64,000 nucleotides of DNA from an uncultured Bacteroidota bacterium (GTDB lineage Bacteria > CLD3 > SB21 > JBBIRG01). Location of the stretch: positions 10,942 to 74,941 of the forward strand of contig CAYPIY010000014.1 in assembly GCA_964410965.1 (NCBI GenBank), written 5' to 3'. Shown piece after piece: positions 3,873-64,000 of this stretch. The translations under genes and the position numbers were made by a program. The notes beneath the pieces are model-generated. The model made no database searches and was not told where the DNA came from. It saw nothing but the letters and a program-made list of their open reading frames with translations. Within the stretch, counting starts at the first letter, position 1. The number at the start of each line of letters is the position of its first letter.

Positions 3873-3993
3873 AGTCCGCCGTCCGGTGAATGGCGGTCGG
3901 ATAGTTTTTTTTAATTCGCCCGAACCAAGACACGCTATTATTTATTCTTTGTGCCTTTGAGTCTTCGTGGCGAGATAGGATAAGGAACAGAAC

Positions 3994-5175: not shown

Positions 5176-5308
5176 GGAATCTTTCCTTTAAACACTCTTT
5201 GATTACTTACAGCTTATCACTTAAACTAATAAAATTAATTTGCATTTCAATATGATTTTAAATAGCTTTGCCGCGTCATTTTTATCACTACTTCCAAAGG
5301 AATTATAC

Positions 5309-24536: not shown

Positions 24537-24570
24537 TCCTTCGCCACCAAGGCACAAAGACAAAAAAAAA

Positions 24571-24625
24571 AATTAAGGTCAATCATAAAAACCCGCTGTG
24601 CGTCAGGCATGGCGGGTTTTGTGTT
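24571..24625 (+). repeat. 55 bp direct repeat copy 1 (contains the serC terminator hairpin 24591..24620)
   Basis: AATTAAGGTCAATCATAAAAACCCGCTGTGCGTCAGGCATGGCGGGTTTTGTGTT is identical to 29439..29493. The hairpin is ACCCGC-15 nt-GCGGGT followed by TTTT. Confidence 0.85.
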
Positions 24626-24853: not shown

Positions 24854-25348
24854 ATGCGAATGCTATATTTTGTTACTGCGTTTATGCTTTTATCGGTGAG
24901 AAGGCTTAATCTTCTAGCTCAGAATACTCGCCGGGCTGGACTCGCTGAAGCTCTGAACGCCGATGGACCGGTCAAATCCGGTGACTCCGGCATTTTTTAA
25001 TACTCAGGAATAACAGATGAAATACGTTAATACCGGAGGAAAATATTGTCTTCTTCAGACTGCAGGTATTGGGAGATATACGGCATCCAAAACGATATTC
25101 CCATCTCCGGCATTGATGAAAACGGAGTTATTGAGCATTCCTTCGAATTAAAGCAAAACCATCCCAATCCCTTCAATCCCACCACGGCCATCCGATATGA
25201 ATTGCCGGTCAATGGGAATGTCAGTTTGAAAAAATTTAACAACCCCGGCCGGGAAGTGAGAACACTGGTCTACGGTTACGTAACAGCCGGAATAAAGCAA
25301 GTGAAATGGGATGGTAAAGATAACCGGGGAGCGCTGTTGCTGAAGTGA
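24854..25348 (+). pseudogene. decayed T9SS cargo gene (signal peptide fragment plus degenerate C-terminal sorting domain)
   Basis: 24854..25000 encodes MRMLYFVTAFMLLSVRRLNLLAQ... and then stops. 25046..25348 encodes ...NHPNPFNPTTAIRYELPVNGNVSLKKFNNPGREVRTLV... but lacks the terminal G.Y.YRL strand region. No passenger domain lies between them. Confidence 0.5.
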
Positions 25349-25431
25349 TGAAAGGTTAATTTTTTGTCGGATAAGTTGAAGGGCATAAACTCATAAAGTT
25401 GATTATTGTTAATAATTTTAATAAGGAGATT

Positions 25432-50098: not shown

Positions 50099-50989
50099 AT
50101 GTCAAAATTCGCATTAACGCTCGGTCCGATGCGCGTACCTTTTTTAATTCTGACTCCCGCCTGTGTGGTGCTTGGGCTTGGAACGGCCCTGTGGACAAAA
50201 GGTTCCGTGGACTGGTGGTATTTTACCCTGGCCATGATTGGTGCTGTGGCGTCGCATATCAGCGTCAACTCATTTAATGAGTACCTGGATTTCAGAACCG
50301 GCCTGGATTTCAGGACTCAGCGCACGCCTTTCAGCGGCGGAAGCGGAACTTTACCGCAGCATCCGGAGATGGCCGGAACGGCGCTATGGACAGCGCTTAT
50401 CTCGATGATCATCACCGCGGGTATAGGGATTTACTTTGTGTACGTCTGGGGTTGGAAACTGCTTCCTCTCGGCATCGCCGGAGTGATATTATTGTACGCT
50501 TATACCAAATGGCTGGTTTACAATCCCTGGCTGTGCCTGATCGCGCCGGGACTGGGGTTCGGGACGCTGATGGTTACGGGCACTCATTTTGTCCTGACAG
50601 GCGAATATTCATGGACAGCATTTCTGGCGTCGTTCATACAGTTTTTTCTCGTAAGCAACCTTCTCTTTTTGAATCAGTTTCCCGACATTGAGGCCGACCG
50701 TTCGGTCGGGAAAAAACATTTTCCTGTGTTGCTCGGAGGGAAAAAAAGCAGCCTGATTTACGGTTTCTTTTTGCTGATGACGTATGTCGTGATCGCCGGC
50801 GGTGTAGCCGTAAAATTATTCCCCGTCACGGCGTTACTCGGATTGATCACTTTAGCGCTGGCGGTACCCGCGTTTATCGGTGCGAACAAATACCACGACA
50901 ACATCCCTAAACTGATCCCGTTTATGGGGTTCAATGTGATCATTAATATTGTTACACCGGTTCTTGTCGCGATCGGAATGATGATCTGA
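50099..50989 (+). CDS. UbiA family prenyltransferase (MenA-like)
   Basis: It is polytopic, with NEYLDFRTGLD (the NxxxDxxxD first Asp-rich motif) and a second motif region NQFPDIEADR. Confidence 0.8.
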   Translation: MSKFALTLGPMRVPFLILTPACVVLGLGTALWTKGSVDWWYFTLAMIGAVASHISVNSFNEYLDFRTGLDFRTQRTPFSGGSGTLPQHPEMAGTALWTALISMIITAGIGIYFVYVWGWKLLPLGIAGVILLYAYTKWLVYNPWLCLIAPGLGFGTLMVTGTHFVLTGEYSWTAFLASFIQFFLVSNLLFLNQFPDIEADRSVGKKHFPVLLGGKKSSLIYGFFLLMTYVVIAGGVAVKLFPVTALLGLITLALAVPAFIGANKYHDNIPKLIPFMGFNVIINIVTPVLVAIGMMI

Positions 50990-51012
50990 CATAAAACAAT
51001 CTGCATTGTCTG

Positions 51013-51055
51013 ACCGTTCCGGAACCTTAATTAAAACACCGGAACGGTTTTTTTA
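51013..51055 (+). terminator. rho-independent terminator after the prenyltransferase gene
   Basis: A perfect 10 bp stem (ACCGTTCCGG / CCGGAACGGT) with a 16 nt loop is followed by a T7 run. Confidence 0.8.
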
Positions 51056-51583
51056 TACTTTGAAGTCACTTCGGAAAAACCTGCAATCGTAATTGCTGAT
51101 GACCCGTTTTTGAATTATGCTGAATTGAGTCTTTAAAAGGCCAATATTTTGGACTTCTTTCTTGATAATAGCTTCATAAGATCAATATTTTGATCCATAG
51201 CAAATTATTTTTATCATAAATCAATTAAATACAAGGTCTTTCATTTTGGCATTAATTTTGTCACTAGTATTTGTTCTCTATGATAATGAAAAAAATAATA
51301 AATTTTTATAAATTGTTTACTTTTTTAGGTTTATGATATTTATCAACAAATAAGATATGACATTGAACAAATATTTTTTTATCACTTCTAATGACCACTC
51401 AAGTGAAATTTTGACCGCTTGCACTGAATTACTTTCTATTCACAGTAAAATGCGCTACCTTCTTACAAGGACTTGCCGGTATTATCTGAATAGAAAACTG
51501 CGACGAAGGAAATGACTTTATGAAATAATAAGGACCTCGGTTCTTTCCGGATGAGTCTGTCACGAATCGATGGTTCCGGAATC

Positions 51584-51603
51584 AAAAAAAAAAAAAAAAA
51601 AAA
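51584..51603. repeat. A20 homopolymer tract immediately upstream of the first leader element
   Basis: Twenty consecutive A residues, counted directly, end 2 nt before GTCGGTTCG at 51606. Confidence 0.95.
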
Positions 51604-51605
51604 CA

Positions 51606-51672
51606 GTCGGTTCGGGTAGTCCGCTGCGGCGGACGTACTTGTCCTGAGTGAATCGAAGGATCGAGAACCGAC
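51606..51672 (+). promoter_or_regulatory. conserved structured leader element, copy 1 (long form); the leader continues to ATG 51750
   Basis: The outer stem is GTCGGTTC/GAACCGAC. The inner hairpin is GTCCGC-TGCG-GCGGAC. The second hairpin is GTCCT-11 nt-AGGAT. An extra 77 nt tail with two small hairpins precedes the RBS AAGGAG. Confidence 0.6.
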
Positions 51673-51749
51673 AGCAAATAAAGCGCTTCCCTAAACAGTC
51701 CGACAAAAGCCGGGCTTGCTCAAAGCGACGAATATAAAGGAGACAGAAT

Positions 51750-54221
51750 ATGAAAAAAGCTACCCTGCTCGTCATCGCGGCGATGCTGTTCCTTCACACA
51801 CAGATCAGCGCGCAAAACGCCGAACGGTACATTTCGGACAATCTGGGACGGATCGTGGAAGTTGCCAATTCCGGCGGTACATTAACTACGCCCCATCTAC
51901 TTATCGGGTATGATACGACCGGCATTGTGTACCAGTCGAATTCCGTAAATACATACAAAATATTCGGATTATTCCCAGATGAAACCAGTCTGCAGAATTT
52001 AAACAGCTGGAATAAATTTGGATCCCCGTCGGGTGATGACAGTTACGAAATCCGTTTCGGTTCCGATTCCAGCCGCTACTGGATCAACACCAACTGGTAT
52101 GGTACAGGCGGTAATCTCGCGCCGAATCAGCTCCCGTTTTCGGTTTATCATGTCGGACCGAAATCATCGGCGGATACTTCGGTTACCGGTGGAATTAAAC
52201 TGTGCCTGAAAGTCACGGACCAGGATGCGGACGGCATTTTCACCGCCGGTGAGATGATCTATGTTTTCGCTGATCTGGCTTTGCCGTTAGACAGCACATA
52301 CGACAGCCTGAGTCAAAGAACCAGCAACCCGTTTGTCCAAAGCCGCAGCGTCATGACTTATCTCCGCTTCGGAGCCGCATCCGTGCCCTACTCACAAACG
52401 ACTTTTTCCGTTCCCGGTGACGGATTCATCCCGCCATACGGCACGGTGATCCGGTTTGTGGCCCAAACTGCTGATTCGATAGAACCCGTTATTCAGTTTC
52501 CTTATACAATCTCTGCTCCGCGCGCAGGAATTGTTTATCGGTTTCCGATTACCGCTTATTCATTTGAAGCGATCGATTATTCATTGGAAAATCAACCGGA
52601 AAATATGACTCTCAGTCATGACACTCTCCTTTGGACCGTTTCGGCAAATCAATTCGGACACTTATACCCTTTTATCCTCCGAGCGACGAATTCAGCCGGA
52701 CATAGTTATAAAACCGTTCAGGCTTTTGCGGGTTATCAAAACTCCACAAACTATGTGCAATTAGGCGAAAATCAAATTGAATACTGGACGTCCAATAACG
52801 GTTCGATCGCTTTCAATTTTCCGATCCAGGAACGTGGCCTTGGATGGATTAATGATCCGGCCGGTTTATTTTACGCAGCAGGGATGTATCTCGGGGGCCA
52901 GAAACAGGGAACAGCGGGGAATCCGGATACCATCAGCGTTTCGCAGGTTGAATTTCAGGGAGAACTGGATGCCGGCCGAATCTTGAATAACGGACCCTTC
53001 GGGAGTTTGCTGGTTGAGAATCCCGATACGTCAGCGGCCAGTGTATTGATTCTTCCGGACCATAGTAATGCATGGCCACCGGAAGCGCCGCATGATGAGC
53101 TGGGTAATCCGCTGAAATTATCCGTCCGGGATACCTGGACGGTGTTTAACGATGTGTGGGCGAAAAGCAGAACGGATGACCCGTTTTCTTTATCTCCCGG
53201 ATTTGGCATTGAATGTCAAAGACAGACATTTCAGTTTCCGGAATATCCGTTTGATCAGGCGGTATTGGTACGGTTGAGAATGATCAACAAATCCGACGCG
53301 GCGTATGATTCGTGTTTCTTCGGCCTGTGGGCTGACCCGGATGTGGGTTTGAATTCGGTAGATGATTTATGCATGGTGGATTCGACCCTGCCGTGTCTGA
53401 TTACCTACAGCGACCCGGCGGGCAGTGACCAAAGTACATCTGCGGCCGGAATTCTTGTTATACAAAGTCCTGTTACGGCAGGTAATGTTAACGATACCGC
53501 AACAGTGATTGAAATCGGAACCCAGGGGTTTGAACCAAAGAGAAAAACCGGAAAGAAATATGCCCTTCCTTCATCAGCGTACGTCTACATGGGCGCGCAA
53601 TGTGAACCCGATGGCTATACTGGAAAGCGTGACATATCCAGATACTGGTATTTAATGGGTTTGGATAATTGGGGAAGCTGGAAACCCAACGGACGTTTTG
53701 ATTTGACCAATTGTGTCGGAACATCTCCTGCCGATCTGCGTGTCATCATGGGTATCGGCCCATATACGTTCCTTGCCGGAGATACGCAGGAAGTCTGGTA
53801 TTCTCTGATGGGCGCTAAGGGCACAACCAAAGCCAATTCTGTGGATTCGATCCTGAGTCGCGCTTATCTGATGAAAGAAAAGTTTTACAGTGACATGAAC
53901 AGCGTAATAGTTGGAGTGAATGACCCGGTGAATCCCGTTCCGCAAAGCATGAAACTGCATCCGAATTATCCCAATCCGTTCAATCCATCCACGACGATAC
54001 GTTATCAGCTGGCAGAGAACAGTAAAGTGACGCTGAAGATCTACAACCTGCTTGGCCAGGAAGTCCGGACATTAGTCAATGCGCAAAAATCCTCCGGCAT
54101 GCATTCAGTTATCTGGGACGGGAAAAACCATCATGGCCAGAGAGTCACATCCGGCGTGTATTTTTACAGGCTGCAGGCGGGTGATTTTGTGAAGACGAGG
54201 AAGATGGTACTGGTGAAGTAA
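51750..54221 (+). CDS. T9SS-sorted paralog 1 (N-module type a, C-module type alpha), function unknown
   Basis: It has the signal peptide MKKATLLVIAAMLFLHTQISAQ, the EF-hand-like loop DQDADGIFTAGE and the T9SS C-terminus NYPNPFNPSTTIRYQL...GVYFYRLQAGDFVKTRKMVLVK. Confidence 0.85.
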   Translation: MKKATLLVIAAMLFLHTQISAQNAERYISDNLGRIVEVANSGGTLTTPHLLIGYDTTGIVYQSNSVNTYKIFGLFPDETSLQNLNSWNKFGSPSGDDSYEIRFGSDSSRYWINTNWYGTGGNLAPNQLPFSVYHVGPKSSADTSVTGGIKLCLKVTDQDADGIFTAGEMIYVFADLALPLDSTYDSLSQRTSNPFVQSRSVMTYLRFGAASVPYSQTTFSVPGDGFIPPYGTVIRFVAQTADSIEPVIQFPYTISAPRAGIVYRFPITAYSFEAIDYSLENQPENMTLSHDTLLWTVSANQFGHLYPFILRATNSAGHSYKTVQAFAGYQNSTNYVQLGENQIEYWTSNNGSIAFNFPIQERGLGWINDPAGLFYAAGMYLGGQKQGTAGNPDTISVSQVEFQGELDAGRILNNGPFGSLLVENPDTSAASVLILPDHSNAWPPEAPHDELGNPLKLSVRDTWTVFNDVWAKSRTDDPFSLSPGFGIECQRQTFQFPEYPFDQAVLVRLRMINKSDAAYDSCFFGLWADPDVGLNSVDDLCMVDSTLPCLITYSDPAGSDQSTSAAGILVIQSPVTAGNVNDTATVIEIGTQGFEPKRKTGKKYALPSSAYVYMGAQCEPDGYTGKRDISRYWYLMGLDNWGSWKPNGRFDLTNCVGTSPADLRVIMGIGPYTFLAGDTQEVWYSLMGAKGTTKANSVDSILSRAYLMKEKFYSDMNSVIVGVNDPVNPVPQSMKLHPNYPNPFNPSTTIRYQLAENSKVTLKIYNLLGQEVRTLVNAQKSSGMHSVIWDGKNHHGQRVTSGVYFYRLQAGDFVKTRKMVLVK

Positions 54222-54296
54222 TTTCTCGCAAAGACGCAGAGGCGCAAAGGGAAAAAAAACATATAAGAATATGAAGACAAGGAAGAAAAATAGATA

Positions 54297-54341
54297 GTCG
54301 GTTCGAGTAGGTCGCTTGAGGTGACCCTATCGAGAACCGAC
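54297..54341 (+). promoter_or_regulatory. conserved structured leader element, copy 2 (short form)
   Basis: It has the same outer stem GTCGGTTC/GAACCGAC. The inner hairpin is changed to GGTCGC-TTGAG-GTGACC, which still pairs. The second hairpin is absent. The RBS AAGGAG follows 6 nt after the stem. Confidence 0.6.
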
Positions 54342-54360
54342 AGAATTAAGGAGAAAGAAC

Positions 54361-56820
54361 ATGAAAAAAGTTACGGTACTCATCATCGCAGCGGCAATGA
54401 TCCTTCACACCCGGATCAGCGCGCAAACCACCGAAGGTTACTTATCCAACAACCTCGGCCGGATCGTGGAGGTGGCCAATTCCGGCGGCACATTAACTAC
54501 CCCCCATCTGCTGATCGGATACGACACCACCGGCATTGTGTATCAGTCAAATTCCCTGAATGCCTTCAGGATTTTCGCGAACTCTCCTTCCACAACCACT
54601 CTGCAGAGCCTGAACAGCCAGAACCGGTTCGGAGCGCCGGGAACCAATGACTGTTACGAGATCCGGTTCGGTTCCGATTCCAGCCGGTACTGGATCAACA
54701 CCAGTATTTTGGGTACTGGAGGAAATCTCGCGCCGAATCAGCTCCCGTTTTCGGTATATTACGTCGGGCCGAAACCATCGGCGGATACTTCGGTGACCGG
54801 AGGGATCAAATTATGCGTGAAAGTCACGGACCAGGACACGAACGGCATTTTCACCGCCGGTGAGCGGATTACGGTTTTCGCCGATCTGCAAGTACCCTTA
54901 GACAGCACATACGACAGCCTGAGTCACCGTGCCGCCAATCCATTTGTCACAAACCGCAGCGTCATCACGTATCTCCGCTTCGGTGCCGCTTCTGTGCCCT
55001 ACTCACAAACGACTTTTTCCGTTCCCGGTGACGGATTCATCCCGCCATCCGGCACAGTGATCCGGTTTGTGGCAAAAACGGGAGACGCCATAGCCCCGAT
55101 TGTCTATAACTTAACCGATACGTTCAGAACATCCGGCATCGGAATTTTTACATCCTCTTTTAATGTATATTCGTATGAAGTTCCTGTCTATACACTGACG
55201 GATGCGCCTGCGGGGATGACGGTATCGGACGGTGTGATAACCTGGAATGTCACAGAAAGCCAAATCGGACAGGTGTATAATGTTATCCTTCAGGCAAGCA
55301 ATGGTGCAGGGGTATCAACTCGAATGTTCCGGGCAAAGGGCAGCTGGGGAACCCAGGAAATCAAGACCGAAGGCGCAGGAAACCTGATCCGGATGTGGCA
55401 GAGAAATGACGGATCGATCGCATACCGTGCCAGTCAAAGCATTTACGGAATGGAATATCCGATCAATTCGGGTTACACACTGAATTATGCGGGAGGATTT
55501 TACTTCGGCGGAATAAAGTCCGGCAGCGGAAATCCCGATACCGTCAATGTCGCTCAGTGCGAATATCAATCCGAATTCCAGCCCGGACGCATTTTGAACT
55601 CGGGACCGTTCGGGACGCTGCAGGGACAGGATTATATGCAACACAACACATTATTCACCCTGCCCGGGAACGAGCTGACCTGGCCGCCGGACGCGCCGCG
55701 GAACACATTGAACGAACCGCTGAGACTTTCTCTGATTGACACGTGGACGGCATTCAACGATCTTTCTATCAGTAACGTATCCGATCCTTTCTCTTTATCG
55801 CCGGGTTTCGGGCTTGAAATCCAGCGCCAGACGTTTCAGTTCAGCCTGTATCCCTTCAACAATGCCGTGCTCGTCAGAATGCGGTGCATCAACAAGTCCG
55901 ACATGAATTATGACAGCTGTTACTTCGGATTGTGGAATGATCCGGACGTCGGTGGAAACGCCGGCGATGACCTCGCAACAGTCGATTCATCCCTTGCCCT
56001 TATAACCGTTTACAGCGACCCGGCCGGCAGTGACCCTCATCCGAGCGCTTTCGGCTGCGCGTTCCTTCAACTCCCCCTGAATACCGGGACCGCCGGAGAT
56101 ACGGCGGTTGTCATCGGCATCACCGAACAGGGTTTCAGCCGAATCACCAAACCCGGTTATAAAAGTTCAGGTCCTTCAGCAGCGATAGCCTATCAGGGTG
56201 GCATAGGAGATCCTGACGGACGAGGAATGGGCGACCGAAGCCGGTACTGGTATGAATCAGGATATGACCTTTTCGGCTATCCAAAACCATTGGGTCCATT
56301 TGACTTGACGACAGTTGGAAATGAACCTGGAGATAAACGTATGGTATTCGGAGCAGGCCCGTTTTCTTTCACGGCGGGAGACACGCAGGACGTCTGGTAT
56401 GCGATGATCGGCGGAATGGGAGTTACCAAAGCCGCCGCGGTCGATACGATACATCATTACGCGGAAATGATGCGCCGGATTTTTATGGAAAACATGAACG
56501 ATTATCTTGTCAGCATTCATGACCCTGTAAATCCGCTTCCACAGGGTGTCAGCCTGCATCCCAATTATCCGAACCCGTTTAATCCTTCGACTACGATCCG
56601 GTACGAGCTGAAACAGGCTTCGAAAGTGACGCTGAAGATCTACAACCTGCTCGGCCAGGAAGTCCGGACATTAGTCAATGCGCAAAAATCCTCCGGCATC
56701 CATTCGGTTATCTGGGACGGGAAGAACCATCATGGCCAGAGGGTCACGTCAGGAGTGTATTTCTATAGGCTGGAGGCGGGTGATTTTGTGAAGACAAGGA
56801 AGATGGTGCTGGTGAAATAA
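54361..56820 (+). CDS. T9SS-sorted paralog 2 (N-module type a, C-module type beta), function unknown
   Basis: It has the signal peptide MKKVTVLIIAAAMILHTRISAQ. The N-terminal 250 or so residues are close to paralog 1, and the C-half is close to paralog 4. It has a T9SS C-terminus. Confidence 0.85.
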   Translation: MKKVTVLIIAAAMILHTRISAQTTEGYLSNNLGRIVEVANSGGTLTTPHLLIGYDTTGIVYQSNSLNAFRIFANSPSTTTLQSLNSQNRFGAPGTNDCYEIRFGSDSSRYWINTSILGTGGNLAPNQLPFSVYYVGPKPSADTSVTGGIKLCVKVTDQDTNGIFTAGERITVFADLQVPLDSTYDSLSHRAANPFVTNRSVITYLRFGAASVPYSQTTFSVPGDGFIPPSGTVIRFVAKTGDAIAPIVYNLTDTFRTSGIGIFTSSFNVYSYEVPVYTLTDAPAGMTVSDGVITWNVTESQIGQVYNVILQASNGAGVSTRMFRAKGSWGTQEIKTEGAGNLIRMWQRNDGSIAYRASQSIYGMEYPINSGYTLNYAGGFYFGGIKSGSGNPDTVNVAQCEYQSEFQPGRILNSGPFGTLQGQDYMQHNTLFTLPGNELTWPPDAPRNTLNEPLRLSLIDTWTAFNDLSISNVSDPFSLSPGFGLEIQRQTFQFSLYPFNNAVLVRMRCINKSDMNYDSCYFGLWNDPDVGGNAGDDLATVDSSLALITVYSDPAGSDPHPSAFGCAFLQLPLNTGTAGDTAVVIGITEQGFSRITKPGYKSSGPSAAIAYQGGIGDPDGRGMGDRSRYWYESGYDLFGYPKPLGPFDLTTVGNEPGDKRMVFGAGPFSFTAGDTQDVWYAMIGGMGVTKAAAVDTIHHYAEMMRRIFMENMNDYLVSIHDPVNPLPQGVSLHPNYPNPFNPSTTIRYELKQASKVTLKIYNLLGQEVRTLVNAQKSSGIHSVIWDGKNHHGQRVTSGVYFYRLEAGDFVKTRKMVLVK

Positions 56821-56894
56821 CCTCTCGCCAGGGCGCAGAGGCGCAAAGGGAAAAAAACATATAAGAATATGAAGCCACGGAAGAAAAATAGATA

Positions 56895-56961
56895 GTCGGT
56901 TCGGGTAGTCCGCTGCGGCGGACGTACTTGTCCTGAGTGAATCGAAGGATCGAGAACCGAC
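56895..56961 (+). promoter_or_regulatory. conserved structured leader element, copy 3 (long form)
   Basis: It is nearly identical to copy 1, including the tail. The tail hairpin is AGCCCG...CGGGCT here and AGTCCG...CGGGCT in copy 1, which is a C-G to U-G change. Confidence 0.6.
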
Positions 56962-57039
56962 AGACAAATAAAGCGCTTCCCTATACAGCCCGACAAAAGC
57001 CGGGCTTGCTCGAAGCGACGAATACAAAGGAGACAGGAC

Positions 57040-59510
57040 ATGAAAAAAGCTACCCTGCTCGTCATCGCGGCGGTAATAATCCTTCACACACGGGTCAGCG
57101 CACAAAACACCGAAGGATACCTGTCCAACAACCTCGGACAGATTGTTGAGGTAGCGAATCCGGACGGAATCATGCCTCAGACTCGTATTCTGATCGGGTG
57201 GGACAGCACCGGATATCTCCGTCAAAGTAACAGCCAGAATACATATAAAATATTCGGCTACGAACCGAAAAACACATGGCTGAATAATGATCAGGGCGTA
57301 TATACGCTCAATATGGCCAATCATTTTGGTTCACCCGGAGGAAATGACGGTTATGAAATCAGATTTGGCTTTGACTCAAGCCGATACTGGATTATCGGGG
57401 GTACGCTCGCGCCGGATCAAGCACCATTTTCTGTTTACCATGTGGGACCCAAACATTCAACCGATACGTCCATTACGGGAGGAATAAAATTATGCATGGG
57501 TATCTGGGATGATGACAGCAACGGTGTCTATACACCGGGAGAAAGGATCCATTTTTATTCTGACCGGGCGTTGCCTTTGGACAGCACCTACGACAGCCTG
57601 AGCACCCGCCTGAACAATCCGTTCAACTATACCATGAGGGTAATTTCCGAACTTCGTTTCGGATCAGGGTCTGTTCCATACACTCAGTCCGGATTCAGAA
57701 TTCCGGAGGACGGGGTGATCCCTCCGGCCGGAACGGTCATCCGGTTCGTTGCGAAATCCGCCGACTCAATCCCGCCGGTCGTTCAGCTTTATTCTTTGCA
57801 GGCTCCCAATGCGGGTGTTCAGTACCGTTTTCCGGTACCGGTATATTCCTTTGAAAGCCCGACGTTATTACTGGAAGATGCTCCTCCGGCTATGATACTG
57901 AGCAATGACACAATTCTTTGGACCATTACTGCCTCACAATTTGGCCAATCCTATCCGTTCCGGATCAGAGCGACGAACTCTGCCGGGTACAGTTATCAAA
58001 GTTGTACCGCTAAGGCAGGTTACTTGTCCGGTTCGGACCTCGTGAATCTCAGAAACAACCAGATTGATTACTGGACATCGAATACCGGTTCTTTCGCTTA
58101 CAATTTTTCAGAAACCATGCCGGGATTTCGCTGGGTAAATGATCCGGCCATACTTTACTTCGCTACCGGCCTGTATTTAGGCGGGAAAAAGCAGGGAACC
58201 GGAGGGAATCCGGATACCATTAGTGTAACTCACACTGAATTTACGCCAAAGTATGAATTAGACGCAGGACGCATTCTCAATAACGGCCCGTTTGGAAGTC
58301 TAACGGTAGAGAATCCTGACACATCAGCGGCAAAAGTGTTTGTGCTGCCGGAGCATAGCGGAATATGGCCTCTCGAAGCGCCGCATGATGAACTGGGTAA
58401 TCCGTTAAAATTATCAGCAAGAGATACATGGACGGTGTTTAATGATGTTTGGGCCAGAACGAGAAATACAGATCAGTTTTCTTTATCTCCTGGATTCGGT
58501 ATAGAGTGTCAGCGACAAACGTTTCAGTTTTTGGAGTATCCGTTTGATCAATCGGTATTGGTGCGGCTGCGGATGATCAATAAATCTGACGCGACTTATG
58601 ATTCGTGTTTCTTCGGACTGTGGGCTGATCCGGATGTGGGTTTGGAATCATCAGATGACTTATCTATTGTAGATTCAACTTTACCGTGTCTGATGACCTA
58701 CAGCAACCCAACGGGTAGTGACCAAAGTACTTCTGCCACAGGAATGCTTGTCATACAGAGTCCTGTTACGGCAGGCAATGTAAACGATACCGTGACTGTG
58801 ATTGAAATCGGCTCTCAGGGGTTTGAACAAAAAAGAAAAGCCGGGAAGATATACGCCATTCCTGCTTCAGCGGTATCATATCGGGGAGGTGTTGGTTCTC
58901 CGACTGGGGCAAATGGTCGTGGCGATTTGACCAGATATTGGTATTTAATTGGGCATGATTATCTGGGCGGATGGAAACCGAACGGCAGATTTGATGTTAC
59001 GGTCAGCGGAACGACACCCGGTGATCAGAGGCAGATCATGGGCGTGGGTCCGTACACATTTCTTCCCAACGATACCCAGGAAGTCTGGTACGCTCTCATG
59101 GGCGCAAAAGGCACAACCAAGGGCAATGCCGTCGATTCGATCCTGAACCACGCCTATCTGATGAAAGAAATATTTACAGCGACATGAACAGCATGATCGT
59201 AGGGGTGAATGATCCGGTGAATCCCGTTCCGCAAAAAGTGATCCTGCATCCTAATTACCCCAATCCGTTCAATCCATCCACGACGATCCGGTACGAGCTG
59301 AAACAGGCTTCGAAAGTGACGCTGAAGATTTACAACCTGCTCGGCCAGGAAGTCCGGACATTAGTCAATGCGCAAAAGTCATCCGGCGTGCATTCGGTTA
59401 TCTGGGACGGAAAGAACAGCCATGGCCAGAAAGTCACGTCGGGAGTGTATTTCTACAGGCTGCAGGCGGGCGATTTTGTGAAGACGAGGAAGATGGTGCT
59501 GGTGAAATAA
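57040..59510 (+). pseudogene. T9SS-sorted paralog 3 (N-module type b, C-module type alpha) split by a 1 nt deletion into a passenger ORF (57040..59187) and a sorting-domain ORF (59184..59510)
   Basis: Aligned to paralog 1, GAAAAGTTTTACAGTGACATGAAC becomes GAAATATTTACAGCGACATGAAC (TTTT to TTT near 59173). The frame shifts and stops at 59187. The +1 frame continues as MNSMIVGVNDPVNPVPQ... through an intact T9SS domain. Confidence 0.7.
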
Positions 59511-59582
59511 CCTCTCGCCAGGACGCGAAGGCGCAAAGGAAAAACCATTAAGAATATGAAGACAAGGAAGAAAAGTAAAAAA

Positions 59583-59650
59583 GTCGGTTCGAGCAGGTCG
59601 CATGAGGCGGACGTACTTGTCCTGAGTGAATCGAAGGATCGTGAACCGAT
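59583..59650 (+). promoter_or_regulatory. conserved structured leader element, copy 4
   Basis: The outer stem ends in GAACCGAT, so the closing pair becomes G-U. The inner hairpin is chimeric, with a left arm like copy 2 (GGTCGC) and a right arm like copy 1 (GCGGAC). The second hairpin is present. The RBS AAGGAG follows. Confidence 0.55.
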
Positions 59651-59669
59651 AGGATTAAGGAGACAGAAT

Positions 59670-62600
59670 ATGAAAAAAGCTACCCTGCTCGTCATCGCGG
59701 CGATGCTGTTCCTTCACACACGGGTCAGCGCACAAACATCTGAGGGGTATATCCAGAACAACCTCGGGCGCATCGTTGAAGTGGCGACGCCGAACGGTGT
59801 TCTGTCCAGGCCGCATGTTCTGATCGGATGGGACACGAACGGATTCGTGAAACAGGCGAATTCACAGAGCGCCTATAAACTATTCGGAAATACGCCCAGC
59901 AACACCGGATTAAACAATACCGGATTCAACAGTGGCGGCAAATTCGGAGCGCCGTCCGGTCATGATTGCCTCGAGTTCCGGTTCGGCGATTCCAGCCGCT
60001 ACTGGATCGGCAATGACCTCGCCCCGGACAAGGTTCCTTTCAGCGTGTACAACATCGGACCCAGATCATCCGCCTATCCGGTCATAACCGGGGGAGTGAA
60101 ACTGTGCCTTCAGGCGTATGACGATAACGGCAACGGCGTTTTCGATCCGGGAGAAAGAATCAATGTTTACGGTGATCTTGCGATGCCCTTTGACAGCGCT
60201 TATGCAGACCTGGGCCAGTCCGGCACGTTTCCGTTTTCGATCAGCCAGCGCTATATCGTGAGCCTTCGAATCGGGAAGTCATCGGTCCCCTACACCCGGA
60301 CAACATTTACGGACTCCTCGGACGGGATCCTGCCCGGGTCCGGAACCGTGATCCGGTTACTGGCGCAGACGTCGGATACCTCGGCGCCGTTTTTTACGGT
60401 GCGTGAACATATCCTGCAGGATACCGGAACGGTGACGTATCCGGATTTTGTCAGTTATTATTCCTTCGAAAAGCCTCGATTTGAACTGTTCCATGGGCCC
60501 TCGAGAATGACCGTGGACTCGGCGGGGGTTCTCCGCTGGACGGTGTATTCGCACCAGCGGGGCAACGCGTATCCGGTATTGCTGAGATTATCCAATGCGT
60601 ACGGGGATTATGAAAGGCCTTTCACGGCGGCCGTGGACGCCAAAGCGCCTCCCGATACCGGTATCGTGGAATATGAAACGACAGCCGAGGGCAACCTCAT
60701 CCGTTTCTGGCAGAGAAATGACGGGTCGATAGGATATCGGGCCAGTCAAAGCATGTACGGAATGGAATATCCCGCAGGAACACATTATTCTCTTGTTTAC
60801 GCCGGAGGAGTCATGCTGGGTGGAAAGAAAACAGGGTTGAATGGAAATCCAGACACGGTAAATGTTGCACATTGTGAATTTCAATCAGAAATGCAACCCG
60901 GACGAATTGTAAACAGCGGACCATTCGGAAGTTTGCAGTCCGAGGATTATCACAACAACATGACATTTTATACATTACCGGAGAACAGCAGTAATTGGCC
61001 GATTGAAGCGCCTCATAATGGATGGGGACTACCGTTACAGCTTTCGGGCCGGGACACGTGGACGGTTTTTAATGATCTTTCCATTGACAAAGTCATTGAT
61101 GAATATTCTTTATCCCCCGGATTTGGATTAGAAGTACAAAGGCAGACTTTTCAGTTCACTCACTATCCATTTAACAATGCCATGATTGTAAGATATTCAT
61201 TTATCAATAAATCAGACAAAAACTATGATTCCTGTTACGTGAGCTTCTGGGATGATGCGGATGTCGGCGCTAATTCAGGTGATGATTTGGGACAACTTGA
61301 TTCAGCGTTGTCATTGAAAATCACATACAGTAATCCTGCGGGAATCGATATTCATCATAGCGCAGTTGGAGTCCAGATTCTGCAGGGTCCAACGGCAGAT
61401 GGAACCACCGGCGATACAGCTTCAATTGTAACTTTGAGCCGGGAAGGGTTTAAACAACTAATACTTTCAGAAAAAAAGGTACAGTTAGCCACATCGGGGT
61501 ATTTTTATTTTAAATCGATGGAAGAACCGGACGGACGGGGTATGGGTGATATATCCCGGTATAATTTTTTAAGCGGAAAAGACCTGTGGGGAAACCCAAA
61601 ACCTGGCGGCCCATTTTATCCCGGCCTGGCCTCCACATCCCGCAGTGACCAACGAAGCCATATTTCCTCCGGCCCCTTCAACTTCGCTGCCGGCGATACG
61701 CAGGAAATCTGGATGACATACATCGGCGGGATGGGCGTGGATAATGCCTCCGCGGTCGATACCGTACGTGACTATGCGAGAAGAATACTCGACGATTTCA
61801 CGAACAACCGGATCTACTCCGGGGATAATCTTCCTCTGGATATCACTCTCTATGGGCTCAGCACACAGGCCGTCAACCGGATACGGTTCATCGCGCATGT
61901 CAATAAGCCGGTCAGTTCACTGATCGTCAGGGCCGGGAATGATACGCTGATCGTTCAGCCTTTAAAAGAAGGCTACTCCGCCGATTACGACATTACAAAA
62001 ACCGGTACCGCAGAGTTGATCGTGACAGGCAGGGATCTGGGCGGAAAACAGGATACCGTCCGAAGAAATTATCAGATATCAGCGATGAACAAACCTCTGC
62101 AGTCAGGTCCGTACCGGTTCTTGGGACAAGGTGAAGGATATCTATTGGTGTCTCAGATTGAACCGATGGTCGTTCCGTTGGGATGGATCCGGTTGGGAGA
62201 GCCGATGGAAGTATTGAGAACGACGGCCTCGGATGTCAGCGCCGAATACACAATGACTGCAAGAGACATGGATAAGATCAAATCGAAATATCCTGAATTG
62301 AATGAAGAGCATATCGGAATATATTACTGGAACGGGACGAAGTGGGAGGAGACAGGAAGCCGGATTCAGGGAAATACAGTCAAAGGGATCTTAAAAGGAT
62401 CGAGGATCGCGGTATTCTACAATCCTGATATCAATAATGCGCCGGAGAGATTCGCGCTGGAGCCGAATTATCCCAATCCGTTCAATCCATCCACGACGAT
62501 ACGTTATCAGCTGGCGGAGAACAGTAAAGTGACGCTGAAGATCTACAACCTGCTTGGCCAGGAAGTCCGGACATTAGTCAATGCGCAAAAGTCATCCGGC

Positions 62601-62723
62601 ATGCATTCCGTTGTCTGGGAAGGAAAGAACAGCCAGGGCCAGAGAGTCACGTCAGGAGTGTATTTCTACAGGCTGGAAGCGGGTGATTTTGTGAAGACGA
62701 GGAAGATGGTGCTTGTTAAGTAG
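59670..62723 (+). CDS. T9SS-sorted paralog 4 (N-module type c, C-module type beta, extra 215 or so aa insert before the sorting domain), function unknown
   Basis: The start is taken at MKKATLLVIAAMLFLHTRVSAQ (ATG 59670, RBS AAGGAG at 59657). The 59556 start in the ORF track would read through the leader element. It has a T9SS C-terminus. Confidence 0.85.
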   Translation: MKKATLLVIAAMLFLHTRVSAQTSEGYIQNNLGRIVEVATPNGVLSRPHVLIGWDTNGFVKQANSQSAYKLFGNTPSNTGLNNTGFNSGGKFGAPSGHDCLEFRFGDSSRYWIGNDLAPDKVPFSVYNIGPRSSAYPVITGGVKLCLQAYDDNGNGVFDPGERINVYGDLAMPFDSAYADLGQSGTFPFSISQRYIVSLRIGKSSVPYTRTTFTDSSDGILPGSGTVIRLLAQTSDTSAPFFTVREHILQDTGTVTYPDFVSYYSFEKPRFELFHGPSRMTVDSAGVLRWTVYSHQRGNAYPVLLRLSNAYGDYERPFTAAVDAKAPPDTGIVEYETTAEGNLIRFWQRNDGSIGYRASQSMYGMEYPAGTHYSLVYAGGVMLGGKKTGLNGNPDTVNVAHCEFQSEMQPGRIVNSGPFGSLQSEDYHNNMTFYTLPENSSNWPIEAPHNGWGLPLQLSGRDTWTVFNDLSIDKVIDEYSLSPGFGLEVQRQTFQFTHYPFNNAMIVRYSFINKSDKNYDSCYVSFWDDADVGANSGDDLGQLDSALSLKITYSNPAGIDIHHSAVGVQILQGPTADGTTGDTASIVTLSREGFKQLILSEKKVQLATSGYFYFKSMEEPDGRGMGDISRYNFLSGKDLWGNPKPGGPFYPGLASTSRSDQRSHISSGPFNFAAGDTQEIWMTYIGGMGVDNASAVDTVRDYARRILDDFTNNRIYSGDNLPLDITLYGLSTQAVNRIRFIAHVNKPVSSLIVRAGNDTLIVQPLKEGYSADYDITKTGTAELIVTGRDLGGKQDTVRRNYQISAMNKPLQSGPYRFLGQGEGYLLVSQIEPMVVPLGWIRLGEPMEVLRTTASDVSAEYTMTARDMDKIKSKYPELNEEHIGIYYWNGTKWEETGSRIQGNTVKGILKGSRIAVFYNPDINNAPERFALEPNYPNPFNPSTTIRYQLAENSKVTLKIYNLLGQEVRTLVNAQKSSGMHSVVWEGKNSQGQRVTSGVYFYRLEAGDFVKTRKMVLVK

Positions 62724-62766
62724 AAAGTTGAAAGTATGAAAGTTGAAAGTAAAATACAAAAACCAA

Positions 62767-62834
62767 GTCGGTTCGAGCAGGTCGCATGAGGCGGACGTAC
62801 TTGTCCTGAGTGAATCGAAGGATCGAGAACCGAC
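62767..62834 (+). promoter_or_regulatory. conserved structured leader element, copy 5
   Basis: It matches copy 4 but has a fully Watson-Crick outer stem (GTCGGTTC/GAACCGAC). Confidence 0.55.
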
Positions 62835-62853
62835 AGGATTAAGGAGACAGAAC

Positions 62854-64000
62854 ATGAAAAAAGGTACGATGCTCATCATTGCGGCGATGCTGATCCTTCA
62901 CACACAGATCAGCGCACAAACATCTGAGGGGTATATCCAGAACAACCTCGGGCGCATCGTTGAAGTGGCGACGCCGAACGGTGTTCTGTCCAGGCCGCAT
63001 GTTCTGATCGGATGGGACACGAACGGATTCGTGAAACAGGCGAATTCACAGAGCGCCTATAAACTATTCGGAAATACGCCCAGCAACACCGGATTAAACA
63101 ATACCGGATTCAACAGTGGCGGCAAATTCGGAGCGCCGTCCGGTCATGATTGCCTCGAGTTCCGGTTCGGCGATTCCAGCCGCTACTGGATCGGCAATGA
63201 CCTCGCCCCGGACAAGGTTCCTTTCAGCGTGTACAACATCGGACCCAGATCATCCGCCTATCCGGTCATAACCGGGGGAGTGAAACTGTGCCTTCAGGCG
63301 TATGACGATAACGGCAACGGCGTTTTCGATCCGGGAGAAAGAATCAATGTTTACGGTGATCTTGCGATGCCCTTTGACAGCGCTTATGCAGACCTGGGCC
63401 AGTCCGGCACGTTTCCGTTTTCGATCAGCCAGCGCTATATCGTGAGCCTTCGAATCGGGAAGTCATCGGTCCCCTACACCCGGACAACATTTACGGACTC
63501 CTCGGACGGGATCCTGCCCGGGTCCGGAACCGTGATCCGGTTACTGGCGCAGACGTCGGATACCTCGGCGCCGTTTTTTACGGTGCGTGAACATATCCTG
63601 CAGGATACCGGAACGGTGACGTATCCGGATTTTGTCAGTTATTATTCCTTCGAAAAGCCTCGATTTGAACTGTTCCATGGGCCCTCGAGAATGACCGTGG
63701 ACTCGGCGGGGGTTCTCCGCTGGACGGTGTATTCGCACCAGCGGGGCAACGCGTATCCGGTATTGCTGAGATTATCCAATGCGTACGGGGATTATGAAAG
63801 GCCTTTCACGGCGGCCGTGGCCGCCAAAGCGCCTCCCGATACCGGTATCGTGGAATATGAAACGACAGCCGATGGCAACCTCATCCGTTTCTGGCAGAGA
63901 AATGACGGATCGATCGGATACCGGGCCAGTCAAAGCATGTTCGGAATGGAATATCCGATCGGTTCAAATTATTCTATTATTTACGCCGGAGGATTTCAAT
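62854..64000 (+). CDS. T9SS-family paralog 5, partial (runs off the window end); N-module type c
   Basis: ATG 62854 follows the RBS AAGGAG, with signal peptide MKKGTMLIIAAMLILHTQISAQ. Positions 62909..63820 are identical to 59725..60636 in paralog 4, after which the sequences diverge. Confidence 0.8.
   Translation, partial: MKKGTMLIIAAMLILHTQISAQTSEGYIQNNLGRIVEVATPNGVLSRPHVLIGWDTNGFVKQANSQSAYKLFGNTPSNTGLNNTGFNSGGKFGAPSGHDCLEFRFGDSSRYWIGNDLAPDKVPFSVYNIGPRSSAYPVITGGVKLCLQAYDDNGNGVFDPGERINVYGDLAMPFDSAYADLGQSGTFPFSISQRYIVSLRIGKSSVPYTRTTFTDSSDGILPGSGTVIRLLAQTSDTSAPFFTVREHILQDTGTVTYPDFVSYYSFEKPRFELFHGPSRMTVDSAGVLRWTVYSHQRGNAYPVLLRLSNAYGDYERPFTAAVAAKAPPDTGIVEYETTADGNLIRFWQRNDGSIGYRASQSMFGMEYPIGSNYSIIYAGGFQ

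Follow-up and report, generated by a model that had tools for sequence, protein, structure and literature searches.

A repeated stem-loop leader before each paralog of a T9SS surface-protein gene array, a candidate mRNA processing or stability hairpin

Five tandem paralogs encoding T9SS-sorted proteins are each preceded by a copy of the same palindromic leader, 45–68 nt long, and each copy is followed by AAGGAG and the ATG. The element is a discrete module within the duplication unit of this surface-protein array, and its most likely nature, judged from predicted folding and position, is that of an ordinary hairpin for mRNA processing or stability, copied along with the genes. The specific proposal, that a sense-strand RNA stem-loop serves as a determinant of processing or stability between cistrons, is put forward tentatively, at slightly less than an even chance. 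All searches and coordinates refer to a 64 kb stretch of DNA (the window) unless stated otherwise.

Anatomy of the leader and its array

The five copies lie exactly where a preliminary description had placed them, and its picture of a discrete, repeated and strongly folding module on the 5′ side of each paralog is supported. The array comprises the following features:

51582–51605, plus strand: A-rich tract directly 5′ of copy 1
51606–51672, plus strand: leader copy 1, long form (P1 of 8 bp, P2 and P3), 5′ of gene 1; covariance-model score 97.3 bits
51673–51749, plus strand: copy 1 tail, 77 nt, up to the ATG; hairpin AGUCCG/CGGGCU, AAGGAG at 51737–51742
51750–54221, plus strand: paralog 1, 823 aa; signal peptide, all-beta passenger, T9SS type A C-terminal domain (CTD)
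54222–54296, plus strand: spacer from the gene 1 stop to copy 2; homologous spacers at 56821–56894 and 59511–59582
54277–54296, 56875–56894, 59563–59582 and 62747–62766, plus strand: equivalent A-rich 20 nt before copies 2–5
54297–54341, plus strand: leader copy 2, short form without P3, P2 rebuilt as GGTCGC/GTGACC; covariance-model score 46.7 bits
54361–56820, plus strand: paralog 2, 819 aa, T9SS CTD
56895–56961, plus strand: leader copy 3, 100% identical to copy 1
56962–57039, plus strand: copy 3 tail, 78 nt; hairpin AGCCCG/CGGGCU, AAGGAG at 57027–57032
57040–59510, plus strand: paralog 3, split by a −1 frameshift near 59170 into 57040–59187 and 59184–59510, the second piece holding the CTD
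59583–59650, plus strand: leader copy 4, chimeric inner hairpin, G·U closing pair
59670–62723, plus strand: paralog 4, 1017 aa, T9SS CTD
62724–62766, plus strand: spacer before copy 5, unrelated to the other spacers (37–39% identity)
62767–62834, plus strand: leader copy 5, chimeric inner hairpin
62854–64000, plus strand: paralog 5, truncated at the window edge; matches paralog 4 without a difference over 912 nt

All five copies share the pattern GTCGGTTC...GAACCGA[C/T]; GTCGGTTC-N-GAACCGAY occurs nowhere else in the window and had 0 matches in dinucleotide-shuffled versions of it. The sequence anatomy agrees with the preliminary description. The closing stem P1 (8 bp) is perfect in four of the five copies, and the G·U-closed exception is copy 4. 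The inner hairpin P2 reads GTCCGC/GCGGAC in copies 1 and 3, GGTCGC/GTGACC in copy 2 and, as a chimera, GGTCGC/GCGGAC in copies 4 and 5. The second hairpin P3 (GTCCT...AGGAT) is missing only from copy 2, through a 23-column alignment gap; this copy has lost 23 nt internally, yet P1 is intact and P2, altered in both arms, pairs fully. The unpaired or junction sequence AGTCGGTTCG is invariant in all copies, as is ATCGAGAACCGACAG apart from one change.

Homology starts 1–2 nt before P1 in copies 1 and 5, whose upstream sequence is unrelated to the spacers of copies 2–4. These spacers are 80–89% identical to one another, and the one at 54222–54296 holds a CTD 3′-end relic, TGAAGACAAGGAAGA, and the motif GGCGCAAAGG followed by an A run. 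On the other side, the extra tail of copies 1 and 3, which had also been described correctly, is inserted immediately 3′ of P1. The two tails are 91% identical and occur nowhere else in the window, and their hairpin is thermodynamically unexceptional (z −0.15 in copy 1 and −2.55 in copy 3). In the short forms, 6 nt separate the element from AAGGAG, the lower end of the distance noted earlier. Because copy 1 stands before the first gene, the element belongs with the downstream gene. The 20 nt 5′ of every copy contain 11–19 A (background probability of 12 or more A, 0.008), and such a tract recurs before the stem in three non-homologous upstream contexts.

Predicted folding and strand asymmetry

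Predicted folds of the element span −22 to −33 kcal/mol. RNAfold gave −32.8 kcal/mol for copy 1 (z −5.26) and −24.1 kcal/mol for copy 2 (z −4.75), with z-scores of −4.38 for copy 3, −1.07 for copy 4 and −1.68 for copy 5. By MFE, copies 1 and 3 are within the most stable 0.1% of the 31,966 71-nt windows, at a GC content of only 58–59%. The three-helix model proposed earlier is predicted to be robust in copies 1 and 3 only: copy 2 has no P3, and only a minority of conformations contain P2 and P3 in copies 4 and 5 (P3 pair probability about 0.3 and 0.25, respectively), with the closing stem alone kept with confidence. Among the four copies computed, P1 pair probability was at least 0.85 in copies 1 and 2, at least 0.93 in copy 4 and at least 0.94 in copy 5. 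Folded together with the spacer and the start of the coding sequence, copies 1–3 remain closed modules, whereas P1 itself is missing from the predicted MFE structure of copies 4 and 5 in this longer context. That these two copies do not favour the three-helix fold speaks against a processing role.

The folding advantage of the sense over the antisense strand is 2.4–5.9 kcal/mol across the four copies tested and favours a reading as RNA; the variant pairs are G·U on the sense strand.

A possible role in transcript processing or stability

The element probably acts as RNA, from the sense strand. A stable P1 would enclose one or two inner hairpins, in a layout that runs from an A-rich, putatively single-stranded tract through the stem-loop to the AAGGAG ribosome binding site. 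A terminator scan reported no plus-strand terminator-like site between the array genes, and we infer that a transcript reads through the array with the element as its intercistronic determinant. An endonuclease could then cut the A-rich tract; candidates are RNase Y, encoded in the window (15735–17306, minus strand; RNase_Y_N, KH and HD domains), or an RNase E-like enzyme. After such a cut, the stem-loop would become a 5′-terminal structure shielding the downstream cistron, and with a cut on its 3′ side it would instead cap the 3′ end of the upstream cistron. In this way the mRNA of every paralog would acquire a separate lifetime and a ribosome binding site free of obstruction. The spacer before copy 5 also carries a sigma70-like match (TTGAAA-16-TAAAAT, 62728–62755), so that this gene at least would be independently transcribed, an observation at odds with the processing reading.

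Conservation, gene conversion and the main rival

The leader had been called far better conserved than the passenger sequence. This holds for the central passenger, where the paralogs are about 60% identical, but not for the immediate flanks (CTD codons, spacer and signal-peptide codons), than which the element is no better conserved: identity is 85–92% over the last 240 nt of the CTD and 79–95% over the first 66 nt of the coding sequence. Genes 4 and 5, identical over 912 nt, nevertheless show eight differences within 45 nt of signal-peptide codons (59680–59724), and there gene 4 matches gene 1. The whole junction block, from CTD codons through spacer, element and ribosome binding site to signal-peptide codons, is kept similar by gene conversion between copies, and mosaic conversion alone can account for the conservation of the element. 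Conservation is thus not evidence of function, since the flanks are equally conserved, including a spacer that is partly a coding relic, and recent gene conversion is evident. The compensatory changes reported earlier come down to two pairs, both in copy 2. Covariation did not exceed shuffle controls (195 of 500 shuffles were as high, for five copies of three sequence types), and this, too, weighs against the processing reading.

These patterns are what would be expected of a functionless hitch-hiker, that is, an ancestral palindromic leader duplicated with the genes and held similar by conversion tracts that span selected CTD codons to selected signal-peptide codons. The adjoining spacer, a conserved CTD relic without obvious role, the mis-paired chimeric hairpin of copies 4 and 5 and the distribution of the element fit this explanation as well. 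A covariance-model search of 13 related loci found no copy, and more distant homologues at 40–70% identity lack the element, an absence that also counts against processing; one relative (L017) has an ordinary terminator between its tandem paralogs and another (L005) a plain 65-nt spacer. Judged by these loci, the element is lineage-specific. A passive origin has difficulty, however, with the rank of copies 1 and 3 among the stablest folds of the 64 kb, with z-scores below −4 for copies 1–3, and with an internal deletion in copy 2 that spared P1 and left P2 fully paired although both arms changed. Further, homology breaks off right at the border of the element in two independent contexts, an A-rich stretch again lies 5′ of it where the sequence is not homologous, and element divergence (0–0.18, mean about 0.10) is lower in every matched pair than that of adjoining CTD codon third positions (0.18–0.27). 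We regard the hitch-hiker as the main rival of the processing hairpin, and as unlikely but deserving real weight.

Other readings

A new regulatory leader, in which a cis-regulatory RNA binds a trans factor (protein, small RNA or ligand) and co-controls all paralogs, would agree with the common junction sequences, the fixed site directly 5′ of the ribosome binding site and the sense-strand folding bias. What all copies share is limited to P1 and part of P2, however, and copy 2, merely 45 nt long and without P3, leaves little space for a ligand pocket. Neither the ribosome binding site nor the AUG is sequestered in predicted folds (mean unpaired probability 0.47–0.91 and 0.67–0.89, respectively), the two other T9SS cargo genes of the window lack the element, and Rfam gave no match, in keeping with the earlier statement that it is not a named RNA family. 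Such control is improbable.

Integron attC sites have the core consensus RYYYAAC...GTTRRRY. A role of the element in DNA, as a hairpin or cruciform palindrome for recombination between paralogs (cassette shuffling) or as a protein-binding palindrome, might be read from P1 and upper P2, which are perfect Watson–Crick palindromes that could form in DNA, from the resemblance of copies 4 and 5 to a recombinant of two hairpin alleles with its breakpoint in the loop, and from mosaic conversion tracts that end within about 100 nt. The clearest conversion boundaries fall instead in signal-peptide codons, outside the element; GGTTC in the 5′ arm and GAACC in the 3′ arm are unlike attC cores; half-sites 29 to 52 nt apart do not suit a dimeric DNA-binding protein; and several pairs are G·U on the sense strand only, with the antisense strand folding worse. 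We consider a DNA-level role quite improbable.

Read on the minus strand, P1 leads into T24 (copy 1), T6 (copy 4), TTGGTTTTTG (copy 5) or TATCTATTTTTC (copies 2 and 3), as in an intrinsic terminator that would stop antisense transcripts at the 5′ ends of the genes. The stem encloses a branched interior of 29–52 nt, unlike a simple hairpin, and the terminator scan did not report these sites; with poorer minus-strand folding, no credible minus-strand gene converging on the sites and no obvious benefit from five such terminators, this function is very improbable.

A dispersed mobile or repetitive palindrome inserted before the genes (REP/BIME-like, or a MITE such as the Correia element) would match a 45–68 nt intergenic repeat with inverted termini but is hardly credible, since a covariance-model search with filters off found no copy outside the array in the window, related loci had none, the closing-stem pattern gave no more than chance matches in JGI metagenome contigs and IMG/VR, plasmids gave no significant match, and no target-site duplication is visible at the element borders.

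The preliminary description had offered four possibilities (cis-regulatory RNA, RNA processing site, DNA palindrome and recombination homology block) and chosen none of them, and it had let the structured-RNA reading depend on further copies and on covariation. No further copy was found in the window, the distant loci, the JGI contigs and IMG/VR, covariation is not statistically detectable with these five copies and concerted evolution explains the conservation, so that this reading is partly weakened; what speaks for it is the better folding of the sense strand.

Comparison with known systems

Integron attC sites are imperfect palindromes of 57–141 nt, one per unit of an array whose genes share an orientation; their ends are conserved and their centre varies. 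The leader is likewise an imperfect palindrome that recurs with each array unit, but its core motifs do not fit, it lies 5′ of each gene and adjoins the ribosome binding site, and the genes are paralogs rather than unrelated cassettes; no integrase was seen among the ORFs examined. The RNase III signals of the phage T7 early region place a hairpin before each gene of a polycistronic transcript, as here, and are not identical repeats. P1 and P2 of the leader stack to about 19–20 bp with an internal loop or bulge, and any involvement of RNase III at this element would be pure conjecture. REP/BIME sequences such as the malE–malF intergenic REP are also imperfect intergenic palindromes, transcribed within operons, and stabilise a neighbouring cistron; REPs are about 35 nt long and dispersed in hundreds of copies, whereas the leader is found in one gene array within the available sequence.

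Closer parallels come from mRNA processing. RNase Y cuts in single-stranded, AU-rich sequence near secondary structure and may favour structured RNA 3′ of the cleavage point (PMC3997798). The sites in Bacillus subtilis cggR-gapA and Staphylococcus aureus sae (PMC3997798) resemble the leader in their single-stranded A/U-rich stretch with structure on the 3′ side, although the gapA cut lies inside an ORF, and the tract here is A-rich rather than AU-rich and its cleavage only proposed. In papBA, cleavage 5′ of a hairpin leaves that hairpin protecting papA (PMC5927463). The papBA and ompA 5′ UTR stabilisers (PMC5927463; references in PMC3997798) share with the leader an unstructured stretch, in them the cleavage site, just 5′ of a hairpin; after the cut, theirs forms the protected 5′ end of an abundant surface-protein mRNA, as the leader would. 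Cleavage in these cases was shown experimentally, by RNase E in Enterobacteria, whereas here it is proposed, with RNase Y, encoded in the window, as a candidate nuclease.

In the cip-cel operon of Clostridium cellulolyticum, the ratios between transcripts depend on intergenic stem-loops of −14 to −24 kcal/mol that lack U tracts (PMC4423207). This system of selective RNA processing and stabilisation (SRPS) shares several features with the array: stable intergenic stem-loops in a secreted-protein gene cluster, most of them without a U tract and not terminators, a structure also in the 5′ UTR of the first gene, and lineage specificity, with gain and loss between related species (PMC4423207). The cip-cel stem-loops vary in sequence and serve mostly as 3′ caps for the gene upstream. 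The leader adjoins the downstream ribosome binding site, its processing sites are putative, and it is a single sequence repeated through the array because the genes are paralogs.

Organization of the array and its leader copies

The palindromic element stands before each of the five tandem paralogous T9SS surface-protein genes, and element copies and genes follow one another in this order:

51606–51672, plus strand, element copy 1 (pattern match)
51750–54221, plus strand, paralog 1, ORF of the co-oriented array
54297–54341, plus strand, element copy 2 (pattern match)
54361–56820, plus strand, paralog 2, ORF of the co-oriented array
56895–56961, plus strand, element copy 3 (pattern match)
57040–59510, plus strand, paralog 3, ORF split by a −1 frameshift
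59583–59650, plus strand, element copy 4 (pattern match)
59670–62723, plus strand, paralog 4, ORF of the co-oriented array
62767–62834, plus strand, element copy 5 (pattern match)
62854 to window end, plus strand, paralog 5, ORF cut by the window end

The pattern GTCGGTTC-N-GAACCGAY matches exactly five times in the window and not once in shuffled sequence, and these matches coincide with the five copies, one per gene, located by the preliminary description. The anatomy proposed there was also read correctly. The inner hairpin (P2) is GUCCGC/GCGGAC in copies 1 and 3, GGUCGC/GUGACC in copy 2 and a mixed GGUCGC/GCGGAC in copies 4 and 5, the second hairpin (P3) is missing from copy 2, an extra tail of 77–78 nt is found in copies 1 and 3, and the short forms end close to AAGGAG, at a distance of 6 nt. 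In copies 4 and 5 the inner hairpin combines the arms of two alleles and is mispaired.

All five copies have the invariant flanks AGTCGGTTCG and ATCG(A/T)GAACCGA(C/T)AG, and their borders are sharp: sequences upstream of copies 1 and 5 are unrelated to the spacers (from the stop of one paralog to the next element) before copies 2–4, and homology starts 1–2 nt before the 8-bp closing stem (P1). The tail of copies 1 and 3 begins directly 3′ of P1, and the deletion in copy 2 is internal, leaving P1 untouched. Because copy 1 precedes the first gene, the element goes with the downstream gene rather than the upstream one. An ATG at 59556, ahead of copy 4, reads in frame through the element into gene 4 and so extends its ORF to 1055 aa.

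The 20 nt before P1 contain 11–19 A in every copy, in three unrelated upstream contexts, whereas only 0.8% of all 20-mers in the window have 12 or more A. These A-rich tracts are predicted to be unpaired in copies 2 and 3, whose closed fold survives inclusion of the spacer. Directly before copy 1 are 24 uninterrupted A (51582–51605). The run is of a size at which slipped strands may vary its length or a polymerase may slip, and it could also be an assembly artefact. Upstream of this run, a possible degenerate sixth copy lies at 51533–51584 (TCGGTTC ... GAATCGAtGGtTCcgGAAtC); the covariance model built from the five copies does not detect it, and its fold is unexceptional (z −1.2).

A T9SS type A C-terminal sorting domain (CTD) was identified in four of the five paralogs, paralog 5 being cut by the window end. 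The passenger, the variable part of each protein, has no match in Pfam and no sequence match in the PDB. Its AlphaFold model is all-beta (mean pLDDT 68, pTM 0.46), and Foldseek searches with this model returned generic beta-sandwich proteins at TM-scores of at most 0.2, with no informative neighbour or assignment. The protein family is small, with 18 clusters or members among 5.8 billion sequences in one protein search. In paralog 3, a −1 frameshift at 59160–59190 (GAAATATTTAC, as compared with GAAAAGTTTTAC in paralog 1) separates the passenger from the CTD: either paralog 3 is a pseudogene, or an A/T run was missequenced.

Predicted folding and covariation

As isolated RNAs, copies 1, 2 and 3 are predicted to close as proposed, at −32.8, −24.1 and −32.8 kcal/mol (z −5.3, −4.75 and −4.4), and they are still closed modules when folded with the spacer and the start of the coding sequence. 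A scan of both strands of the 64 kb in 71-nt windows puts copies 1 and 3 at the 0.1 percentile; the windows that fold better are mostly coding sequence of 65–82% GC, as compared with 58–59% GC in the element. The inner fold of copies 4 and 5 is weak, with z of only −1.1 and −1.7, a three-helix fold 0.2–0.6 kcal/mol above the MFE, a P3 probability of about 0.3 and a dominant rival GGAC/GUCC hairpin, and in longer context their predicted MFE structure is without P1. Folded in isolation, copies 4 and 5 pair in P1 with a probability of at least 0.93, and copies 1 and 2 reach at least 0.85. Given the weak inner fold of copies 4 and 5, P1 is therefore the only structure common to all five copies, along with the invariant flanks. 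Sequestration of the RBS was considered and rejected as unlikely, because the RBS and AUG are largely unpaired in the predicted ensembles.

The compensatory changes claimed earlier do not exceed the shuffle expectation: only two of the 25 RNAalifold pairs are changed on both sides, both owing to copy 2, and 195 of 500 shuffles scored as high. The covariation score was 0.104 against a shuffled mean of 0.087, from five copies and hence with very low power, and 96.6% of cells pair in the named structure, as compared with 95.5% in shuffles. The comparison of hairpin 'alleles' (copies 1 and 3, copy 2, and the mispaired copies 4 and 5) is suggestive but turns on a single contrast. Repeated well-folding non-coding blocks between tandem paralogs can persist through concerted evolution, and apparent compensatory changes among a few paralogous copies do not amount to evidence of selection on structure.

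Conservation and gene conversion

The element had been described as far better conserved than the passenger. This is true of the passenger itself (about 60% identity), but the conservation of the element is not special relative to its flanks, which are equally conserved.

Table. Nucleotide identity between copies of the segments of the array
Segment; identity between copies
Last 240 nt of the CTD; 85–92%
Spacer, copies 2–4; 80–89%
Element, copy 2 deletion left out; 88–100%
First 66 nt of the coding sequence; 79–95%
Passenger; ~60%

The spacers after paralogs 1–3 (54222–54296, 56821–56894 and 59511–59582) contain a relic of the CTD 3′ end (TGAAGACAAGGAAGA; ATGAAGACAAGGAAGAAAAAT, as compared with GTGAAGACAAGGAAGATGG), which is readable as a mini-ORF MKTRKKNR. 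This relic is hard to credit with function, though it is conserved as well as the element. Weaker look-alikes of the motif that follows the stop codon in these spacers (TCGCCA...AAGGC[A/G]CAAAG and a run of A) occur at 24537–24575 on the plus strand, directly after the stop of the ORF at 23445–24536, and at 3941–3990 on the minus strand. GGCRCAAAG occurs five times in the window against 0.9 expected, and the spacer motif may be a short one that recurs between genes across the genome.

A tract of 912 nt is 100% identical in genes 4 and 5 (59725–60636 and 62909–63820), which diverge again after 60637, while eight differences fall within the 45 nt just upstream of the identical tract (59680–59724). 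The signal-peptide codons of gene 4 match gene 1 over the first ~55 nt, including this stretch. Either gene conversion has left a recent mosaic here, or the assembly of this repeated region is chimeric. Such a mosaic junction block points to active gene conversion, which is thus able to explain the similarity of the leaders. Divergence is 0–0.18 in the element, 0.18–0.27 at third codon positions of the adjoining CTD and 0.05–0.27 in the signal-peptide codons, so that the element lies below the CTD third positions and overlaps the signal-peptide codons. A small excess of constraint on the element is possible but not demonstrable, and its conservation has a sufficient neutral explanation.

Occurrence outside the array

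Rfam 15 gave no match over the whole window at gathering thresholds, in agreement with the earlier statement that the element belongs to no named RNA family; at E values up to 10, the region 50900–64000 gave only two weak, unrelated matches inside coding sequence. With filters off, the covariance model found nothing in the whole window beyond the five copies (next best score 12.6 bits), and no further element copy on 18 loci. Weak matches of the model on two contigs (L014 and L010), pre-selected by the closing-stem pattern, were rejected, as they are located in a coding region and a tRNA-like stretch. The same closing-stem pattern, AGTCGGTTCG-N20-50-TCGNGAACCGAYAG, gave one chance match in JGI metagenome contigs and four in IMG/VR, the latter in coding sequence, and the only plasmid match to 51590–51750 (copy 1, its A-rich flank and its tail) by blastn was insignificant.

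Genome contigs searched with the paralog protein alignment gave CTD matches only. The element is absent from the contigs of the family members P0005, P0010, P0011, P0014, P0009 and P0016, and the contigs of relatives at 40–70% protein identity have no such element. Two loci (L004 and L007) have single genes with unrelated upstream regions, and in L005 a plain 65-nt spacer follows the preceding paralog. Other structures occupy the equivalent position in distant relatives: an intrinsic terminator, AATTGTTT-TATTG-AAACAATT followed by TTTTCT, lies between tandem paralogs at 360–470 of L017, and a terminator-like hairpin (CGACGGTCTTACCGTCG, then GCTTTTTT) lies within the leader of the single-copy gene of L007 (9930–9970). 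Judged from the window and the relatives at 40–70% identity, the element looks lineage-specific. It is not a general T9SS leader, because two further T9SS CTD genes of the window, for a subtilase (5240–8212) and a SusE-like protein (25399–29400), are without it. Upstream of the SusE-like gene, a CTD-like coding fragment (…NPFNPTTAIRYELP…) at 25100–25350 is apparently the remnant of a decayed T9SS cargo gene.

Transcription context

A scan of the plus strand found no terminator-like site between the array genes. The element is followed by AGAATTAAGGAG, AGGATTAAGGAG or AGCAAATAAAGC, with no directly adjoining U run, and a plus-strand intrinsic terminator was rejected on both grounds. As no such terminator separates the genes, transcripts that start in the AT-rich region upstream of copy 1 could plausibly read through the array, as we infer from the sequence. 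The spacer before copy 5 (62724–62766) is unrelated to the other spacers and has GAAAGT-type direct repeats. It also includes the best sigma70-like match of the array region (TTGAAA-16-TAAAAT, 62728–62755), with a predicted start 4–6 nt before copy 5; this putative promoter, if used, would equally make the element a 5′-terminal stem-loop.

Alternative explanations

That the element is a neutral hitch-hiker kept by gene conversion is somewhat unlikely, and gene conversion could by itself account for the likeness of the copies. A regulatory leader that binds a factor is improbable. A palindrome acting at the DNA level, in recombination or protein binding, is more doubtful still, given that the spacing of its half-sites varies from 29 to 52 nt and that its one-sided pair variants are G.U on the sense strand. 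The sense strand is predicted to fold better than the antisense strand by 2.4–5.9 kcal/mol in each of the four copies compared; together with the G.U variants, this speaks mildly for an RNA on the coding strand rather than a DNA palindrome.

We consider an antisense terminator very improbable: although the minus strand has T runs after P1, it folds less well than the plus strand, and what the stem encloses is large and branched. There is a similarly slim chance that the palindrome is a structure-specific recombination signal, marking the 5′ boundary of exchangeable cassettes and promoting gene conversion among the T9SS paralogs. Its footprints would be the mixing of two hairpin alleles in copies 4 and 5 and the alternation, around the element, of tracts that are identical and tracts that diverge, and such a signal would represent a new kind of antigenic or surface-variation system in an FCB-type bacterium. 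Integron attC sites carry the core sites R″/R′, RYYYAAC ... GTTRRRY, at their two ends. The ends of the element, GTCGGTTC ... GAACCGAC, have these the other way round, GTT standing in the 5′ arm and AAC in the 3′ arm, and an attC site was rejected. The array genes are paralogs with their own RBSs, and the upstream ORFs examined are not integrases. A REP- or MITE-type element is scarcely credible, as there are no dispersed copies but only the five array copies within 64 kb, and no target-site duplication, the flanks differing between copies with no bordering direct repeat.

A possible processing-stability hairpin

The best explanation of the element, which we hold tentatively and at slightly less than an even chance, is an intercistronic or 5′-UTR processing-stability hairpin, because the putative 5′-to-3′ succession of an A-rich single-stranded tract, a stable stem-loop and an RBS is the layout of known determinants. 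Features of the papBA/SRPS type are found here, namely a stable, non-coding stem-loop between co-oriented genes with no U tract after it, and an A-rich segment, predicted to be unstructured, that adjoins the stem and could be cut. RNase Y, with RNase_Y_N, KH and HD domains, is encoded on the minus strand of the window at 15735–17306, which bears on any mRNA-processing model for this organism. If the processing-stability reading is true, each gene in the surface-protein array of an uncultured T9SS bacterium would get its own mRNA lifetime and ribosome access, and one more compact, portable insulator hairpin would be known outside model organisms, where few are. In practical terms little is gained unless the function is confirmed by transcript data or orthologous arrays.

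In papBA, RNase E cuts upstream of a hairpin, which then protects papA (PMC5927463). RNase Y cuts in single-stranded, AU-rich RNA close to a secondary structure, and may prefer the structure to lie 3′ of the cut (PMC3997798). Transcript ratios in the cip-cel operon are set by intergenic stem-loops (−14 to −24 kcal/mol) that have no U tract and that come and go between species (PMC4423207). The element is real and has no Rfam entry. It is a small, apparently lineage-specific stem-loop, and its general kind is well known; it has its layout in common with papBA, SRPS and RNase Y sites, and is known here from its sequence and predicted folding.
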